Shown: one piece after another, positions 38,613 through 64,000 of the stretch
Layout: each line of letters starts with the position of its first letter
Position numbering within the stretch: the stretch's first letter is position 1
From: Candidatus Phycocordibacter aenigmaticus
Lineage (GTDB): Bacteria > Patescibacteriota > Minisyncoccia > Phycocordibacterales > UBA2163
DNA length: 64,000 nt
Assembly: GCA_002327585.1 (NCBI GenBank)
Contig: DCWL01000006.1
Coordinates: 28,302 to 92,301, forward strand
Direction of reading: 5' to 3'
Notes under the pieces: model-generated
What the model was told of the DNA's origin: nothing
The model's database searches: none
What the model saw: only the letters and a program-made list of their open reading frames with translations
Position numbers and translations under genes: made by a program

Positions 38613-38680
38613 ATAAGTTATAAGATTAACTCTAACTTTATATTCCTCAGCACAATATTTATTACCATTAAAATAAAAAA

Positions 38681-38702
38681 GATCACCATATTTTTGGTGA
38701 TC
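38681..38702 (+). terminator. terminator hairpin after yebC-like gene
   Basis: gatcacca..tggtgatc 8-bp stem, U-rich downstream. Confidence 0.45.
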
Positions 38703-38724
38703 CTATCTCTTTTACTCTTATTAT

Positions 38725-39125
38725 AATGACACTCCCAAGAGGAAACAAAACTTCTTGCTCCTCTTGGGGCGTCAGACAGTTGCAACTCGACCCTAGTTGC
38801 CGGCGTGCCCCATTACGTACAAGCTCCGATGTGTAAGACTGTCACTACACTGGCTTGATTCCGACGTGCCTCGGTACAGCAATTCCTTGTTTATGCTCCA
38901 TGGATGAGTGACCGAGAAATCATCCCATGCGCCCAAGTCAACCTGACTTGGAATTCGACACATTACTATGTCTCCTATTGTATAGTTATGTATTCCTATA
39001 CAACCCTAATGAGTGCTCACCCATAACCGGAGGGCTTCTTTCTGTGGTTTCCTGCAAGTATCCCATCAGCGACACTTGCAACTAATATAATATTAGCCAC
39101 TTAAAGTACTAACTGTGGATAGTTT
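38725..39125. ncRNA. candidate structured non-coding RNA of unknown class
   Basis: ~400 bp with no ORF in six frames, conspicuously GC-richer than surroundings, many nested inverted repeats; strand undetermined. Confidence 0.35.
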
Positions 39126-39185
39126 AGCATGCTTTATTTTATTTGTCAAGGAGTAAAACCTCTTCCTAAAATGTACTATGTACAT

Positions 39186-43686: not shown

Positions 43687-43804
43687 ATCTAAAGGATACT
43701 ATGATTTTAAAAATAAATCCTGTTAGGAATCGCGAGGTCGTGCAGCGCCTCTATTTCTAATGGAATAAAAAACTCCCGAAGCGTAAGCACTTCGGGATTT
43801 ATTA

Positions 43805-43942
43805 TTATTCTGGATATACATCTCGTTCTTTTACAAATTCTTTACAGGTACAACACCAATTGTTGTCCCGTATTCTCTCTCCACAGCTTATACAGCGTTT
43901 AACAACTTTGGCAAGTTTAATTACCTTCTTTTTTTCATCCAT
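43805..43942 (-). CDS. small zinc-ribbon protein (possible ribosomal-type)
   Basis: 45-aa ORF MDEKKKVIKLAKVVKRCISCGERIRDNNWCCTCKEF.., CxxC..CCxC; adjacent to rpmG. Confidence 0.35.
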   Translation of the reverse strand: MDEKKKVIKLAKVVKRCISCGERIRDNNWCCTCKEFVKERDVYPE

Positions 43943-43996
43943 AGCCTGTCCCCCCACAAACACCTTTCTTTTTAATACAAAAATTAAGTAATGTTT

Positions 43997-44161
43997 TTTA
44001 CAGCTCTATGTGTGCTGTTTTTTCTTTACATTTTATACACCATAAATGCTTAATATGACCTTTTCCTCTGTTTCTATTTTTAAGCCTTTGGATACTTTGC
44101 ACTTCTCCACATTTTGTACACTCAAGGTCTTTTTTTATAAGATTATGTATACCTCTTGACA
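43997..44161 (-). CDS. rpmG: 50S ribosomal protein L33
   Basis: 54-aa ORF; ECTKCGE...KHLWCIKCKEKTAHIEL matches L33 zinc-ribbon pattern. Confidence 0.7.
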
Positions 44162-44472
44162 TTTATTCTTTCTCCTCTTCAAAATAAGATTAAATGAGGT
44201 AAAATTAATTATGGTTTTTACCGTACTTCTGTTGGAAAGTATATCATGCCTATACCATTTGTCAAACACACCTAAAAACCATCTTGCTCACAGTGGAAAA
44301 CATGAAACAATTATTCAGTTGCCAATAATTGGATTCTTCCTTATAATTAAACTAATGGGTAGTAAACTGCACGAGTTGAGGAAACCTCTTTTTTGAAATG
44401 TGTAACCTCCTTTCCCGAGAGGCGCCATCTAAGAATGGCTACGTCAACCCAACTCGTGCCAACTTATTTTTA

Positions 44473-44500
44473 CCGCCAAAGAATTTTTTTGGCGGTTTTT
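44473..44500 (+). terminator. rho-independent terminator (plus-strand orientation)
   Basis: ccgccaaa gaa tttttttggcgg stem followed by TTTTTATTTATT. Confidence 0.6.
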
Positions 44501-45602: not shown

Positions 45603-45802
45603 AATAACTTTAATTAGTTTTTATATATAAATTTATTATTACTATTACTATATATGTTTATAACTTAATAACTTTTTTTATATATATTTCTAAACATATT
45701 AATCTAACTTTATTTTCAATAGCTTGTTAATAAGTAATGTAAAATATGATTATAAATACACACACAACAATCTTTTACTTTATAAGTAAAAGTTATACAC
45801 AA
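45603..45802. promoter_or_regulatory. candidate DNA-unwinding element (oriC component), dnaA-dnaN intergenic
   Basis: 200 bp almost pure A/T, one DnaA-box variant TTATACACA. Confidence 0.4.
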
Positions 45803-53272: not shown

Positions 53273-53581
53273 TTATTTTGCAAGGATCTTTTTCTCATAC
53301 TCTGGGAAATATGTGGATATTTGTTTTAAGTTGAATTTCTTAAGTATTGCTTCTTTTGGTTCTTTATCAAGAAGAAATTCAAATGACTTTCGGACTAGTT
53401 CACTGGGTTTGACCTCGCGGCTAGTAAGTTTCTCCCAATATTCCCTATCAACCGTCACTTCGTAGCACATACCTTCAATCTCTACACTAAATACCCATTT
53501 CTCTTCAGATTCACTTTTTATTTCTACATTTGTCATACCTCTAATTCTCTCATAGGTGTGGATAAATGGGAAATTTGACAA
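53273..53581 (-). CDS. hypothetical protein
   Basis: 102 aa. Confidence 0.45.
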   Translation of the reverse strand: MSNFPFIHTYERIRGMTNVEIKSESEEKWVFSVEIEGMCYEVTVDREYWEKLTSREVKPSELVRKSFEFLLDKEPKEAILKKFNLKQISTYFPEYEKKILAK

Positions 53582-53682
53582 TATATTATAGAATATGTTA
53601 CGATACAGCCTCGTTGTTCTTTATAGCTACATACGGCTAGCCACAGCCACATTTAACTTTTTTACAATGAAAGGGGTTTTGA

Positions 53683-54204
53683 ATGACTTCACGAACAGAT
53701 AAAAAAAAGATTTTAACTGTCGGTTTTTCCGACAATGAAAAGCAAATATTAGACGCTTCCAATGCCGGTAGGTTTGATATTACTCACGAGAGTAATACAA
53801 AAGACGGCCTGGAGAGCATCTCAAACGCGACCGTGTTTGATGCTTTATTTGTAAAGGACGGAGCATGGCCTGCCATAGAAGGCAGAAGTGCTATAGATGG
53901 TAGAGATCTGCTTAAACAAATGTCAGAGATACCTAAACTTCTTACAATAGCTATCGAAGACAGTATGTTTATAGGTATTGCCCATCCGGAATGTGGCAAA
54001 AAACCTGTTGTTCAAAACCTGAAAGATCTAGAAAGTATCAGGAATGTGGAGAGGATTACCGCATTAGATATTAGTACAAACAAAGATTTAAAAGCTTTAT
54101 TTAGTACGGTGGTTGAGAATATTATCAATGAAGAGTCATTAGTAAAAGAAGATTCGGCCGGGAAAACAGAAGATGTAAAAAACGCAGCATTTCTGACTTC
54201 CTAA
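53683..54204 (+). CDS. hypothetical protein
   Basis: 173 aa. Confidence 0.45.
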   Translation: MTSRTDKKKILTVGFSDNEKQILDASNAGRFDITHESNTKDGLESISNATVFDALFVKDGAWPAIEGRSAIDGRDLLKQMSEIPKLLTIAIEDSMFIGIAHPECGKKPVVQNLKDLESIRNVERITALDISTNKDLKALFSTVVENIINEESLVKEDSAGKTEDVKNAAFLTS

Positions 54205-54325
54205 TCCTAATTTAGATGTAGTAGAAGTAAAAACTAATTAATTTAAAGGCTTGTGGCTAAGCTATGTAGTTGGTATACCCCCAAAACCTTTGGTTTCGGG
54301 GGTTTTTATTGTATAGTAAATCAAT

Positions 54326-54396
54326 CGGGGTGTAGCATAGTGGTAGTGTACTCGGTTTGGGACCGAGCGGTCCGGGTTCGATTCCCGGCTCCCCGA
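54326..54396 (+). tRNA. tRNA-Pro (TGG)
   Basis: anticodon loop TTTGGGA; C1:G72 and A73 as expected for bacterial tRNA-Pro. Confidence 0.75.
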
Positions 54397-54402
54397 ATTT
54401 TC

Positions 54403-54416
54403 TAAAGGACATTTAT
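54403..54416 (+). repeat. TAAAGGACATTTAT motif, copy 1
   Basis: exact 14-mer also at 57036..57049; partial copy 57023..57035. Confidence 0.7.
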
Positions 54417-54996
54417 ATAACTATATCTTCTAAAAATCCCACTCTCACCTTTTTATTCTTTATATCAAGATAAATTATAATCACATCAAACCACCACTAT
54501 ATGCCATCACCTGCCTTTTCAAGTAAGTATGTCCGTATAGTTCTTAATAATAGCTTTAATTTCTATTAATGTGCTTTATCTTCCGGTCTACAGCTATCTG
54601 TTTCATGAATAACATTATCTAATTTTCCACATAACATAGTTTTTACTTCAATAAAGTGTAAAAGCTTATCTTTTTAGTAATTATACCAATTTCTCCCTAT
54701 TTTTTTCAATAATTTCATTCAATAATCTTAAACCTTTGTTTCACGAGAAACCTATATGCTATATTTTCATTAATTTCTCTAATTTACTGCTTTTTTTATT
54801 TCAATTCCTATTGATATATGTTATTTATGAAACATAATATAATAAAGTTTCATGTGAAACTATTTTAAGTGTTATGAACAGGATGTATTACTTAACCTTT
54901 GAGTAACAAATATCCTTATTTTAAGTCATATTTTTAGAAAAGGACGTTATAATTAACTATTTATTAAAAATGTCTTTTATACACATATTCACAGTT

Positions 54997-55005
54997 TTAT
55001 CCACA
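54997..55005 (+). promoter_or_regulatory. perfect DnaA box TTATCCACA
   Basis: seen directly inside 690-bp AT-rich ORF desert. Confidence 0.5.
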
Positions 55006-55092
55006 ATTTTACATGAAAATATCCTTATTTTTCGTAATTTTTAAAAAATCTTAAAGACAAAACTACAAAAATTATTAACGTTATTGATAGTG

Positions 55093-55163
55093 TGCGGATA
55101 GAGGGAATTGAACCCTCGTCTCATCCTTGGCAAGGACGTATTCTACCACTAAACTATACCCGC
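55093..55163 (-). tRNA. tRNA-Gly (GCC)
   Basis: anticodon loop TTGCCAA, acceptor GCGGGTA. Confidence 0.8.
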
Positions 55164-55166
55164 ATA

Positions 55167-55238
55167 CGCGCCCGCCAGGACTCGAACCCAGAACGGCTGG
55201 TCCGAAGCCAGCTGTGATATCCATTTCACCACGAGCGC
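55167..55238 (-). tRNA. tRNA-Arg (TCG)
   Basis: anticodon stem GCTGG/CCAGC, loop CTTCGGA. Confidence 0.75.
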
Positions 55239-55302
55239 AATAAAGATATTATACAATTTTATTGGCATAAATACAAAACATGAAGTAGAATAAATATAAA
55301 TA

Positions 55303-56778
55303 ATGAACAAGATTAAATTAAACATTCCAAAAGAGGTTTCACAGGTAACAAAATCGCTAGAAAACGCAGGTTTTGAGTCATATATTGTGGGAGGATGTGT
55401 GAGAGACCTCTTGAGAGGCAAAATTCCAAAAGATTGGGATATTACAACAAATGCGACACCCGAGAGAATAAAAAAACTATTTGACAACACATTTTACAAT
55501 AATGATTACGGAACAGTAGGTGTTGTGAATGAGGGTACAGAGGATGAAACTCTTAAAGTGATTGAAGTAACACCATATCGTCTTGAATCAGAATATTCAG
55601 ACGCCAGAAGACCAGATTCTGTGGAATTCAGCCATTCTTTAGAACATGACCTGCATAGGCGTGACTTTACAATAAATGCGATCGCATACAGTCTTTCTAA
55701 AGAACATATCGTTGATCTTTATAAAGGACAAGGAGATATAGAGAAGGGAATTGTGCGCGCAGTTGGAGATCCAGATATAAGATTTAATGAAGATGCTTTG
55801 AGAATATTACGTGCTATAAGGATTTCAGCGGAGTTAGGTTTTAAAATAGAGGAGAAAACTAAAAAAGCAATTAAAAATGATGCTAGAATGATAGTTAAAA
55901 TTGCCAAAGAGCGAATTAGAGATGAGTTTATAAGGATTATTATGTCAGATAAGCCTATGGAAGGCCTTGAATTAGCCCATGAATTGGGGGTTTTAAGCTT
56001 TATAATACCTGAACTTGAAGAAGGGTTTGACGTGAAACAAAATCAGGCTCATTCCTACACAGTTTGGGAGCATTCTCTTAGATCAGTTCAGCATTCATCT
56101 GAAAAGGGATGGCCTCTTGAGATACGTTTGGCGGCTTTGTTTCATGATATAGGAAAACCAGCAACAAGTAGGTGGTCTGACGAAAAGCAGGATTGGACGT
56201 TTCATGGGCATGATGTTGTCGGCGGCAGGATGACTAAGAAAATACTGACTGATTTGAAGTTTCCCAACAAACAAGTGGATAAAATAACAAAATTGGTCCG
56301 CTGGCACTTGTTTTTCTCTGATACTGAGAAAATAACACTCTCTGCCGTCCGCAGGATGATACGAAACGTGGGGGAAGATAATATATGGGATCTAATGGAT
56401 TTGCGTGTCAGCGACAGAATAGGAACAGGAAGGCCAAAAGCTCATCCATATCGCCTACGCAAATATAAATCTATGGTTGAGGAGGCACTACGAGACCCAA
56501 TATCTGTAATGATGCTTAAAATTAATGGCAGAAGAGTTATGGAAATTACAGAAGAGAAACCGGGACCTAAAATAGGATATATTCTACACGCTCTTTTGGA
56601 GGAAGTTTTGGATAATCCGAAGCTCAATACTGCCGAATATTTAGAGGAAAAGACTAGAAAACTTATTAAATTAAGTGAGAGTGAGCTCAAAAAAATTGGA
56701 GAAAAAGGAAAATTAAAAAAAGGCGAAATAGAAGGAAAAGAAGTTGAAAAAGTAAGAGATAGGCATTATGTGAAATAA
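55303..56778 (+). CDS. cca: CCA-adding tRNA nucleotidyltransferase with HD domain
   Basis: 491 aa; GGCVRDLLRG pol-beta head, HD motif region FHDIGK. Confidence 0.8.
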   Translation: MNKIKLNIPKEVSQVTKSLENAGFESYIVGGCVRDLLRGKIPKDWDITTNATPERIKKLFDNTFYNNDYGTVGVVNEGTEDETLKVIEVTPYRLESEYSDARRPDSVEFSHSLEHDLHRRDFTINAIAYSLSKEHIVDLYKGQGDIEKGIVRAVGDPDIRFNEDALRILRAIRISAELGFKIEEKTKKAIKNDARMIVKIAKERIRDEFIRIIMSDKPMEGLELAHELGVLSFIIPELEEGFDVKQNQAHSYTVWEHSLRSVQHSSEKGWPLEIRLAALFHDIGKPATSRWSDEKQDWTFHGHDVVGGRMTKKILTDLKFPNKQVDKITKLVRWHLFFSDTEKITLSAVRRMIRNVGEDNIWDLMDLRVSDRIGTGRPKAHPYRLRKYKSMVEEALRDPISVMMLKINGRRVMEITEEKPGPKIGYILHALLEEVLDNPKLNTAEYLEEKTRKLIKLSESELKKIGEKGKLKKGEIEGKEVEKVRDRHYVK

Positions 56779-57035
56779 AAAAATCCACCATAGAGCTTAA
56801 AGTGGAGTTATGTAAGCATAATAGTGGATTTCTAGGAGAAACCGAGAGAGATGAGAGAAGGCCGTAAAATGAGTTTGATATAAGTTATATGCGTGTATTA
56901 AATATCTCTTTATACAAAAATTTAATAAGATTGCAGATAAAAATACTTAACAGTCATACCACTAAATTCAAACTACCTGATTGTGTAAAGAACCACTAAT
57001 CCACTTATTATAATACTTCCTATAAAGGACATTTG

Positions 57036-57057
57036 TAAAGGACATTTATGTGGATAA
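57036..57057 (+). repeat. TAAAGGACATTTAT copy 2 overlapping perfect DnaA box TGTGGATAA
   Basis: seen directly; DnaA box 57049..57057. Confidence 0.7.
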
Positions 57058-62960: not shown

Positions 62961-63332
62961 ATGGAGAAAATAGATACACAATATTTTAAGGAAAAGCTTG
63001 AAACAGAACTTAATGTGCTTACTGAAGAGCTTCAAAAAATTGCAAGAATTAATCCATCAAATCCCAATGACTGGGAGCCGATCCCAGCGAAAATGGATAC
63101 ACTTGAAACGGATAAAAATGAGGTGGCGGACAGGATTGAAGCGTTTGAAAAAAACACCGCTTTAGCTAAAGAGCTTGAAATTCGGTTCAATAATATAAAA
63201 CGTGCACTTAAAAAAATTGAAGATGGCAAATACGGAATTTGTGAAGATACAGAAGAACAGATTCCCCTCGCGCGTCTTGAAGCAAATCCAGCAGCGCGTA
63301 CATGTGCTGACGTAGGAAAAAAAGAATCCTAG
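62961..63332 (+). CDS. DksA/TraR-family C4 zinc-finger protein
   Basis: 123 aa; coiled-coil then GKYGICEDTEEQIPLARLEANPAARTCADV. Confidence 0.55.
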   Translation: MEKIDTQYFKEKLETELNVLTEELQKIARINPSNPNDWEPIPAKMDTLETDKNEVADRIEAFEKNTALAKELEIRFNNIKRALKKIEDGKYGICEDTEEQIPLARLEANPAARTCADVGKKES

Positions 63333-63459
63333 TTTAAATATAGTGATAATTTTGTTACTAATGAATATTTATAACATTTTTGTGTTAAATTTTCTTAAAA
63401 CAAAAACCTGCAAATCTTAAAAACTTGCAGGTATATTATTTGGTCATTATGCGATGCTC

Positions 63460-63900
63460 TTATTGTTGGAAATAATTAATTATTTCTAGACATCTTTGCC
63501 CCTCCTGTTTAATTAAATTTACAATTTCCTGAAAAGCATCAGGAACAGATTTTGCTTCTGTTCTGTCATTAGGATAATAAGTAATTTCTACCTCATCATC
63601 ACCACATTCAATTCTATCTTCTTTGTTTTTAAATGAGAAGCTGATTAATCTTGAATCAAGATCATTATGATTACTTGCAACTTTGTATACAATACCTGCG
63701 CTAATTTCATCTTCCTTTAGTTTTTTGCAAAACACAACATCACTGTCCATAGATACTTTTCTAGCAATACTCATAATTGTTTCTTCTGCGGTATTTTTAA
63801 AATATTTTCTACCATTATCTCTAAAAGCCAAAAGTGTTTTTTCAGTTAGTTCATTTAACTCTTTGAAAAAATTCTTAACATTTTCGTCATCCATTCCCAT
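63460..63900 (-). CDS. hypothetical protein
   Basis: 146 aa. Confidence 0.4.
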   Translation of the reverse strand: MGMDDENVKNFFKELNELTEKTLLAFRDNGRKYFKNTAEETIMSIARKVSMDSDVVFCKKLKEDEISAGIVYKVASNHNDLDSRLISFSFKNKEDRIECGDDEVEITYYPNDRTEAKSVPDAFQEIVNLIKQEGQRCLEIINYFQQ

Positions 63901-64000
63901 CTTCTTTCTCCTTATAAAAAGATTATTTAATAGGTATAAGATACATCTCTAATTTTATTATACATGTATAACACAGCTTGTCAAGATTACTAATTTTAAC

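Follow-up and report, generated by a model that had tools for sequence, protein, structure and literature searches.

What does the long AT-rich gap between two tRNA units near dnaA contain, and why does it carry a perfect DnaA box? The question is raised by the spacer at 54398-55091 of a 64-kb stretch of DNA (contig DCWL01000006.1; hereafter the window, meaning the whole stretch analysed, to which coordinates refer unless stated otherwise). The window derives from a marine Paceibacteria ("Pacebacteria", Candidate Phyla Radiation, CPR) population, with a DnaA identical to the protein P0121 (found on Tara Oceans and NCBI metagenome-assembled genome contigs). The spacer of 694 bp contains 23.8% GC, as against 36.4% for the window, and lies within the longest stretch that is uncovered by any open reading frame (ORF) of 60 aa or more (54205-55148, 944 bp; the runner-up is 516 bp), the longest ORF in the tract being 33 aa. 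A preliminary description was correct in noting this largest ORF-free tract, its AT-richness, its setting between tRNA-Pro and a tRNA-Gly/tRNA-Arg/cca cluster, and the perfect box TTATCCACA at 54997-55005 on the plus strand. It offered three readings of the tract, as part of a dispersed origin, a DnaA-regulated promoter region, or a decayed gene, and as a set these were supported in part. The flanking tRNA units are convergent, both pointing into the tract, and the tract is thus the promoter region of neither flank. Our own answer, to which a probability of about 0.6 is assigned, is that the tract represents a yraN pseudogene together with a predicted origin-proximal, extra-origin DnaA-binding cluster, similar to the DnaA-box clusters (DBCs) of Bacillus subtilis or datA of Escherichia coli, beside degenerate parS-like sites.

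The segment 54413-54808 is a dead yraN gene (UPF0102, PD-(D/E)xK nuclease). By tblastn with the intact proteins of two related loci (L001 and L003; the related loci compared are labelled L001-L099), matches were obtained with E = 1e-6 and 7e-4, and the match, at 54777-54419 on the minus strand, runs through stop codons and a frame change. The segment aligns over its full length (~396 nt), with 68-73% nucleotide identity, to the intact genes of L009, L005, L011, and L014, and the family is identified by the Pfam PF02021 match of the L009 ortholog and by precomputed calls in relatives. The ATG was lost, eight internal in-frame stops were gained, several of them by TGG-to-TGA or TGG-to-TAG changes, and one 1-bp deletion is located at ~54675, while the natural TAA stop is kept at 54413-54415. 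Derived substitutions in the window lineage are strongly GC-to-AT, and this bias accounts for the low GC content of the tract. The tract recurs at 100% identity in three further assemblies of this population (L091-L093) and is hence not an assembly artefact.

Relatives were located via the cca protein, and a metagenome scan by YraN alignment added 80 further yraN loci. All relatives found via cca have an intact yraN/UPF0102 gene of 119-152 aa, with tRNA-Pro on one side and tRNA-Gly(gcc) on the other; L001, L003, L005, L009, L096, L097, and the 80 metagenome loci keep an intact gene at this place. The nearest long-contig relatives with an intact copy are L097 (DnaA 85% identical), L096, L009, and L005. 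The position is orthologous, as tRNA-Pro, tRNA-Gly/Arg, and cca flank yraN in relatives too. Of the three readings offered initially, the decayed gene is hence right for this segment, as established by tblastn and the full-length alignment.

The remaining ~280 bp of the tract is the counterpart of a conserved region located 5' of yraN in relatives, and it contains the three co-oriented DnaA boxes (Table 1). The array reads TTATACACA-TATTCACA-GTT-TTATCCACA from box C to box A, with start-to-start spacings of 8 and 12 bp, and is 26-27/29 identical to its counterparts in L009, L005, L011, and L014. The same arrangement is found in L009, L005, and L003 (52% cca identity), and a rearranged one in the GC-rich L001. 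When the profile hidden Markov model (HMM) of the conserved module was used in nhmmer, a single match was obtained in the window (E = 2.1e-11) and one match per locus in 72 of the 80 yraN loci. In these 80 loci, the density of boxes with one mismatch at most is 3.79 per kb in the 350 bp upstream of yraN and 0.44 per kb elsewhere. The perfect box TTATCCACA is present within 400 nt upstream of the yraN start in 53 of them, always on the strand opposite to yraN as in the window, and nine further loci carry a perfect box 530-1100 nt upstream, several through an inserted methyltransferase gene. DnaA domain IV keeps the GGRDHTTVIH motif in common with B. subtilis DnaA, from which recognition of the consensus box is expected. 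The stretch thus contains at least three boxes with no more than 1-2 mismatches in short non-coding DNA, 8-9 kb from the dnaA-dnaN spacer, as is characteristic of an extra-origin cluster.

The surroundings of the boxes are conserved as well. The consensus of 55 unique loci, anchored on the perfect box and written in yraN orientation, is aaaac-TGTGGATAA-ctn-TGTGGATA-...-T...TAAAG, mostly followed by GACA; an inverted TGTCTTTTA is located 12-25 nt further on and an ATAAGGA element ~20 nt upstream. In the alignment of 55 loci the inverted pair takes the form AAAGGACA-N(12-25)-TGTCTTTTA, with arms conserved in sequence but without covariation, which suggests that the TGTCYTTTA-type motif is a protein site. 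Five exact TGTCYTTTA sites exist in the window, four of them at two DnaA sites or at the yraN end, and the motif flanks both conserved DnaA sites; it is a candidate for an accessory protein site of the kind that IHF has at datA, the binder here being putative.

Table 1. Coordinates of the features discussed, in order of position in the window
Feature	Position	Strand	Remarks
dnaA-dnaN spacer	45603-45802	-	14.5% GC; degenerate tandem boxes 45655-45672, trio-like TAGTAATAGTAA repeats 45634-45653, AT-rich run
Three TTATTAACA variant boxes upstream of dnaA	47260-47290	-	11-bp spacing
Third perfect DnaA box	53557-53565	-	divergent region upstream of MscS-side ORF and 173-aa ORF
tRNA-Pro(tgg)	54325-54397	+	tRNA unit bordering the tract
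yraN (UPF0102, PD-(D/E)xK nuclease) pseudogene	54413-54808 (~400 bp)	-	tblastn and full-length nucleotide alignment
Second parS-like 16-mer	54737-54752	.	2 mismatches; inside the pseudogene, at the recurrent in-gene site of relatives (+46)
Degenerate parS-like palindrome AGTTTCATGTGAAACT	54846-54861	.	3 mismatches to TGTTTCACGTGAAACA
Inverted pair of TGTCYTTTA-type motifs abutting box C	54938-54979	.	AAAAGGACG 54938-54946, TGTCTTTTA 54971-54979
Conserved module	54966-55033	-	profile HMM from 57 related loci: TCCTTAT element, three boxes, first TGTCYTTTA-type motif
Three co-oriented DnaA boxes	54977-55005	+	TTATACACA (54977), ATATTCACA (54985), TTATCCACA (54997, predicted high-affinity anchor)
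AT-rich spacer, box A to tRNA-Gly	55006-55091	.	conserved TCCTTAT (55022-55028) and TTAAAGACA (55051-55059)
tRNA-Gly(gcc)	55092-55163	-	transcribed toward the box array
tRNA-Arg(tcg)	55166-55239	-	transcribed toward the box array
cca	55303-56778	+	beyond tRNA-Gly/tRNA-Arg
parS-like 16-mer	56024-56039	.	2 mismatches
Second conserved DnaA site	57023-57057	-	perfect box 57049-57057, then two tandem TGTCCTTTA motifs, 39 bp past the exoIII stop

The decay of yraN made it possible to compare the fate of the array with that of its neighbour gene. A change was counted as derived in the window lineage when the sisters L009 and L097 and at least one of four outgroup relatives agree and the window differs. 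By this count, 62 of 316 positions (19.6%) have changed in the pseudogene body and 11 of 50 in the proximal upstream region including the parS-like palindrome, but none of 26 in the three boxes (binomial P = 0.003), and none of 45 when the adjoining inverted repeat is included (P ~5e-5, hand calculation). The conservation of the array therefore exceeds that of the neighbouring DNA. With the pseudogene on one side and inward tRNAs on the other, no live gene can be transcribed from the array in the window genome, and since yraN is dead and the array is without derived change, selection on the array does not act via yraN expression. In the lineage of the window the array is independent of yraN decay, and it appears to be kept for its own sake, which is the main argument against a pure operator. 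The Zambryskibacteria-type loci L007 and L008 were considered as a second test of independence and set aside, as yraN, tRNA-Gly, and the array are all missing beside cca there.

The following order of events is proposed. ATP-DnaA would bind the anchor box TTATCCACA and spread head-to-tail over the two weaker co-oriented boxes, so that a small DnaA complex would form ~8-9 kb from the probable dnaA-dnaN origin. In relatives the complex would sit between yraN and the tRNA-Gly/Arg unit, which usually points at it (the adjoining tRNA is transcribed toward the array in 37 of 50 related loci and away in 13), and it may also modulate transcription entering yraN. The array probably acts together with the putative TGTCYTTTA-binding factor. 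As yraN is dead, no other gene is drivable, and the array is unchanged, the selected function is most likely DnaA binding itself, at an origin-proximal site of titration or initiator control. Several points weigh against this proposal. DnaA occupancy and any effect on initiation, and with them the presumed physiological role, are read from the sequence only; with three boxes the array is smaller than most DnaA-box clusters on record; the factor that would bind TGTCYTTTA is postulated; the assignment of the origin is based on 64 kb and on motif architecture; the independence from yraN comes from a single lineage, that of the window; and the array follows yraN through rearrangements, as a promoter-associated operator would.

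The last point leads to the rival that survives best, namely that the array is only a DnaA-dependent operator or promoter of the yraN unit, left over and not yet decayed in the window genome. This leftover operator is possible but doubtful in our estimation, and the associated view, that DnaA regulates transcription there and so ties a recombination nuclease to the state of replication, is held with equal reserve. In relatives the single-copy array is always located 5' of yraN on the opposite strand, and the boxes stay with one transcription unit through rearrangements, as expected of an operator; to this extent the DnaA-regulated promoter of the preliminary description gained support. In six loci (L054, L055, L072, L077, L080, and L087) exoIII replaces the tRNAs as the upstream neighbour and the array is still with yraN. 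In another six (L019, L027, L033, L035, L058, and L090) array and yraN are separated by an inserted gene, in yraN orientation, for an S-adenosylmethionine (SAM)-methyltransferase-like protein (205-219 aa), the array staying near tRNA-Gly, 5' of the methyltransferase-yraN pair and 0.9-1.1 kb from yraN. A TATAAA-like hexamer lies inside box C, although a sigma-70 promoter in the array would need a poor -35 element, TGGATA, with a 16-nt spacer (by eye on the alignment). Against an operator, the distance from the array to the yraN start varies from 107 to ~1100 nt, and both tRNA units of the window point inward, leaving no live gene to regulate. The boxes of an operator should lose constraint once the gene is lost, but the array and its flank carry no derived change where the dead gene and its proximal upstream region have changed at ~20% of positions. 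In the window genome, control of yraN as its promoter is therefore not what selection can have kept the array for.

Extra-origin DnaA-box clusters, pseudogenes, and parS clusters are known kinds of elements, and the DnaA-binding cluster proposed here can be compared with several of them. The oriC-proximal DBCs of B. subtilis are intergenic, lie outside oriC, and together restrain initiation; some also regulate the adjoining gene, and a genetic link to Spo0J/parS has been described (Okumura et al., PMC3245932). The array is likewise an intergenic box cluster near but outside the origin, but differs in having only three boxes and a TGTCYTTTA companion, in its CPR host, and in being known from sequence alone. 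The E. coli datA locus, which inactivates DnaA, is located downstream of the glyV-X-Y tRNA-Gly operon (PMC10950094). Here too a box cluster lies directly downstream of a tRNA-Gly unit, with tandem boxes of the sort that support DnaA oligomers, and the second protein site that datA needs, for IHF, would be matched by that of the putative TGTCYTTTA binder. On the other hand, datA is far from oriC and has more boxes over a larger region, whereas the array is compact and origin-proximal; no IHF-type site is recognisable at the array, the tRNA points away in the 13 relatives mentioned above, and the likeness is one of sequence. E. coli DARS1, in the region upstream of the DNA-repair nuclease gene uvrB, has three DnaA boxes, with a role reportedly concerning mainly DnaA and not uvrB. 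The array likewise consists of three boxes 5' of a DNA-repair nuclease gene, but the DARS core boxes are oppositely oriented and those of the array are all co-oriented.

The likeness to datA can be carried further, to a datA-like initiator-control locus of Patescibacteria that, once initiation has occurred, would sequester or inactivate DnaA, with tRNA read-through and a putative DNA-binding protein adjusting its activity, and that would lie inside a parS centromere. This extended model is speculative, and we regard it as unlikely. If it were true, the array would be the first replication-control element defined for the CPR, and a tRNA-coupled DnaA sink would either be ancient or have evolved twice. 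Nothing is known experimentally about the control of chromosome replication in CPR/Patescibacteria, and full-text searches of the literature turned up no publication that deals with oriC or parS of Patescibacteria. Three cis elements can be named within 10 kb of dnaA: the canonical-looking, probable unwinding module of the dnaA-dnaN spacer, the deeply conserved extra-origin DnaA array, and a parS-like cluster spanning cca-yraN. New here are the account of such elements from a CPR lineage and a natural experiment in which array and neighbour gene have been uncoupled; the dead yraN suggests that the array is selected for itself.

The parS-like sites surround the same locus. The canonical parS is a 16-bp palindrome, TGTTTCACGTGAAACA / TGTTNCACGTGAAACA. 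A scan of 76 non-redundant loci over +/-10 kb around the yraN start gave 140 parS-like sites with two mismatches at most, every one of them from -3000 to +500 of that start; cca, the spacer, and yraN itself carry them. L003, L005, and L067 have a perfect copy of the palindrome that immediately precedes yraN, and it is near-perfect or perfect in relatives. The sites resemble parS in the same 16-bp palindrome and in being repeated close to the origin, some of the copies within genes; they differ in that the copies of the window carry 2-3 mismatches and that no ParB gene was found, by a search for the GERRxRA motif, in the window or in 99 related loci (loci only).

The next rival in order takes the tract for a replication origin, or for one arm of a split origin in which looping would bring it together with the boxes flanking dnaA. 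This is improbable. It has in its favour the perfect box with two co-oriented boxes in roughly helical phasing, the AT-rich 86-bp flank in the window, the distance of only ~8-9 kb from dnaA, the clustering of parS-like sites at the tract, and the fact that all dnaA-flanking boxes of the window are degenerate. A basal unwinding system (BUS) consists of co-oriented boxes, a short spacer, at least three DnaA-trios with a central A on a defined strand, and AT-rich DNA, and in applying the rule at least three NAN triplets were required on the correct strand, no further than ~16 bp 3' of the boxes (PMC8287927). Like the BUS, the array has co-oriented boxes with only a few bp between them, and one box conforms to the consensus. 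But no DnaA-trio run was found 3' of TTATCCACA, where the top strand of ATTTTACATGAAAAT has no more than two NTN triplets in succession, and no conserved AT-rich unwinding element adjoins the array. The 86-bp flank of the window is absent in L009 and L097; there tRNA-Gly starts 5-8 nt past box A, which leaves no room for such an element.

A BUS-like module of box, box, spacer, trios, and AT-rich DNA is conserved instead in the dnaA-dnaN spacer in seven lineages, the strand of the trios being presumed in part after the B. subtilis sequence. In L014 it reads TTATGCACA-TATCCACA-gcac-TAATAGTAATAGTAATAA, followed by AT-rich DNA up to dnaN, and L096, L098 (45% GC), and L099 have the same design with good boxes. 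The boxes have drifted in the window (TTATTAAG-TTATAAACA), in L012, and in L097, although all three keep the trio run and the AT-rich DNA. The three-box set upstream of dnaA is conserved in seven lineages as well, and its last box (TTATTAACA) is invariant. The statement of the preliminary description that the rpmH-dnaA-dnaN region has no perfect box is literally true, but it misleads as conserved variant boxes are present there. Raw GC skew, in the window and as the mean of 12 syntenic loci, tracks the strand of genes and cannot place the origin at this scale. At four-fold degenerate sites, within the resolution that small counts and a 64-kb span allow, the cumulative G-C of the plus strand has its minimum at ~48.4 kb and rises onward, including 48.5-54 kb, and the switch is thus near dnaA and not at 55 kb. 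A skew minimum far from the tract, with box frequency at background, had been named beforehand as speaking against the locus. The outcome of this check is mixed, as the minimum is only ~6.5 kb off and box density at the tract is above background. The window contains 36 boxes with one mismatch at most, as against 17.6 +/- 4.4 expected, 12 of them between 52.8 and 58.4 kb. These observations altogether indicate that the yraN-side array is not the site of origin unwinding, and the dispersed origin is unsupported in that sense. The unwinding origin is most likely the dnaA-dnaN spacer, which together with the upstream TTATTAACA boxes probably forms a bipartite origin whose boxes have drifted from consensus in the lineage of the window. 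The case is a caution for annotation pipelines: one perfect DnaA box by itself, in an AT-rich gap close to dnaA, is no origin.

An unannotated structured RNA or small protein encoded in the tract is very improbable. The gap between the convergent tRNA units is long, and promoter-like hexamer pairs are in excess in 53500-55800 (17 vs 9.7 expected). However, the pseudogene accounts for 400 bp, the only ORF is that of 33 aa, Rfam searches at the gathering threshold and at E up to 10 gave only tRNAs in the tract region, the arms of the inverted repeat are conserved by sequence without covariation, and a structured RNA in the non-pseudogene part was rejected by folding of 54809-55091 (z = -1.09). 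That the tract is AT-rich junk with a chance 9-mer is scarcely credible, for such a 9-mer is expected 0.6 times per window but perfect boxes number three (0.61 +/- 0.74 expected; 0/100 shuffles reached three), all within 3.5 kb (53557, 54997, and 57049) and in or bordering intergenic DNA, and the chance reading is refuted by conservation, the array being kept in the 72 loci at 45-70% YraN identity.

The two other perfect boxes of the window have counterparts in relatives. A same-strand box is present 3' of exoIII in 23 of 34 related loci, perfect in 15, followed by one or two TGTCCTTTA. The box at 53557-53565 is conserved ahead of the MscS promoter in L097 and L009, where its context is identical, and is inverted in L005.

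YraN has been reported as a nuclease that resolves transformation D-loops with the ComM helicase, the pair co-evolving (bioRxiv 10.1101/2024.02.06.579203). The alignment of the decayed ORF to UPF0102 genes extends from end to end, and in at least 13 relatives comM follows a dksA-like gene, 7-10 kb from yraN. In the window, the gene is disabled and comM is gone from the syntenic site: no comM was found at 63333-64000, though it may lie elsewhere in the genome, and no remnant was detected at 63200-64000 with relaxed search settings. Co-loss of yraN and comM in the lineage of the window is possible, and such a joint loss would be independent comparative support for the proposed nuclease/helicase pair. 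The comM site at 63333-64000 is occupied by an unrelated ORF of 146 aa on the minus strand without a Pfam match.

The tRNAs for Pro(tgg), Gly(gcc), and Arg(tcg) hold their positions around yraN (L001-L097) but flip strand freely, which points to frequent inversions on a very local scale. Integration of a mobile element at tRNA-Pro was considered for the tract and rejected, since no direct repeat of the tRNA 3' end is present and the nearby XerC-like gene is syntenic in relatives. The runner-up among the ORF-free stretches, at 38613-39128, has 41% GC and lies between yebC and ruvC. The minus strand of a 772-bp tract downstream of dnaN (43727-44498) has two short Cys-rich ORFs (52 and 54 aa, CxxC...CxxC); the tract also contains a GC-richer stretch at ~44330-44470 that has a terminator-like hairpin at its end and no Rfam match, and that may be a small RNA. 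In L054, L055, L072, L077, L080 (9440-9800 of that locus), and L087, a GC-rich element of ~300 nt is located between the exoIII-side box and the yraN-side array. This element has no copy in the window and no Rfam match. Several of its base pairs show compensatory changes, and a terminator is present; it is probably an as yet unclassified structured RNA of this sub-lineage.

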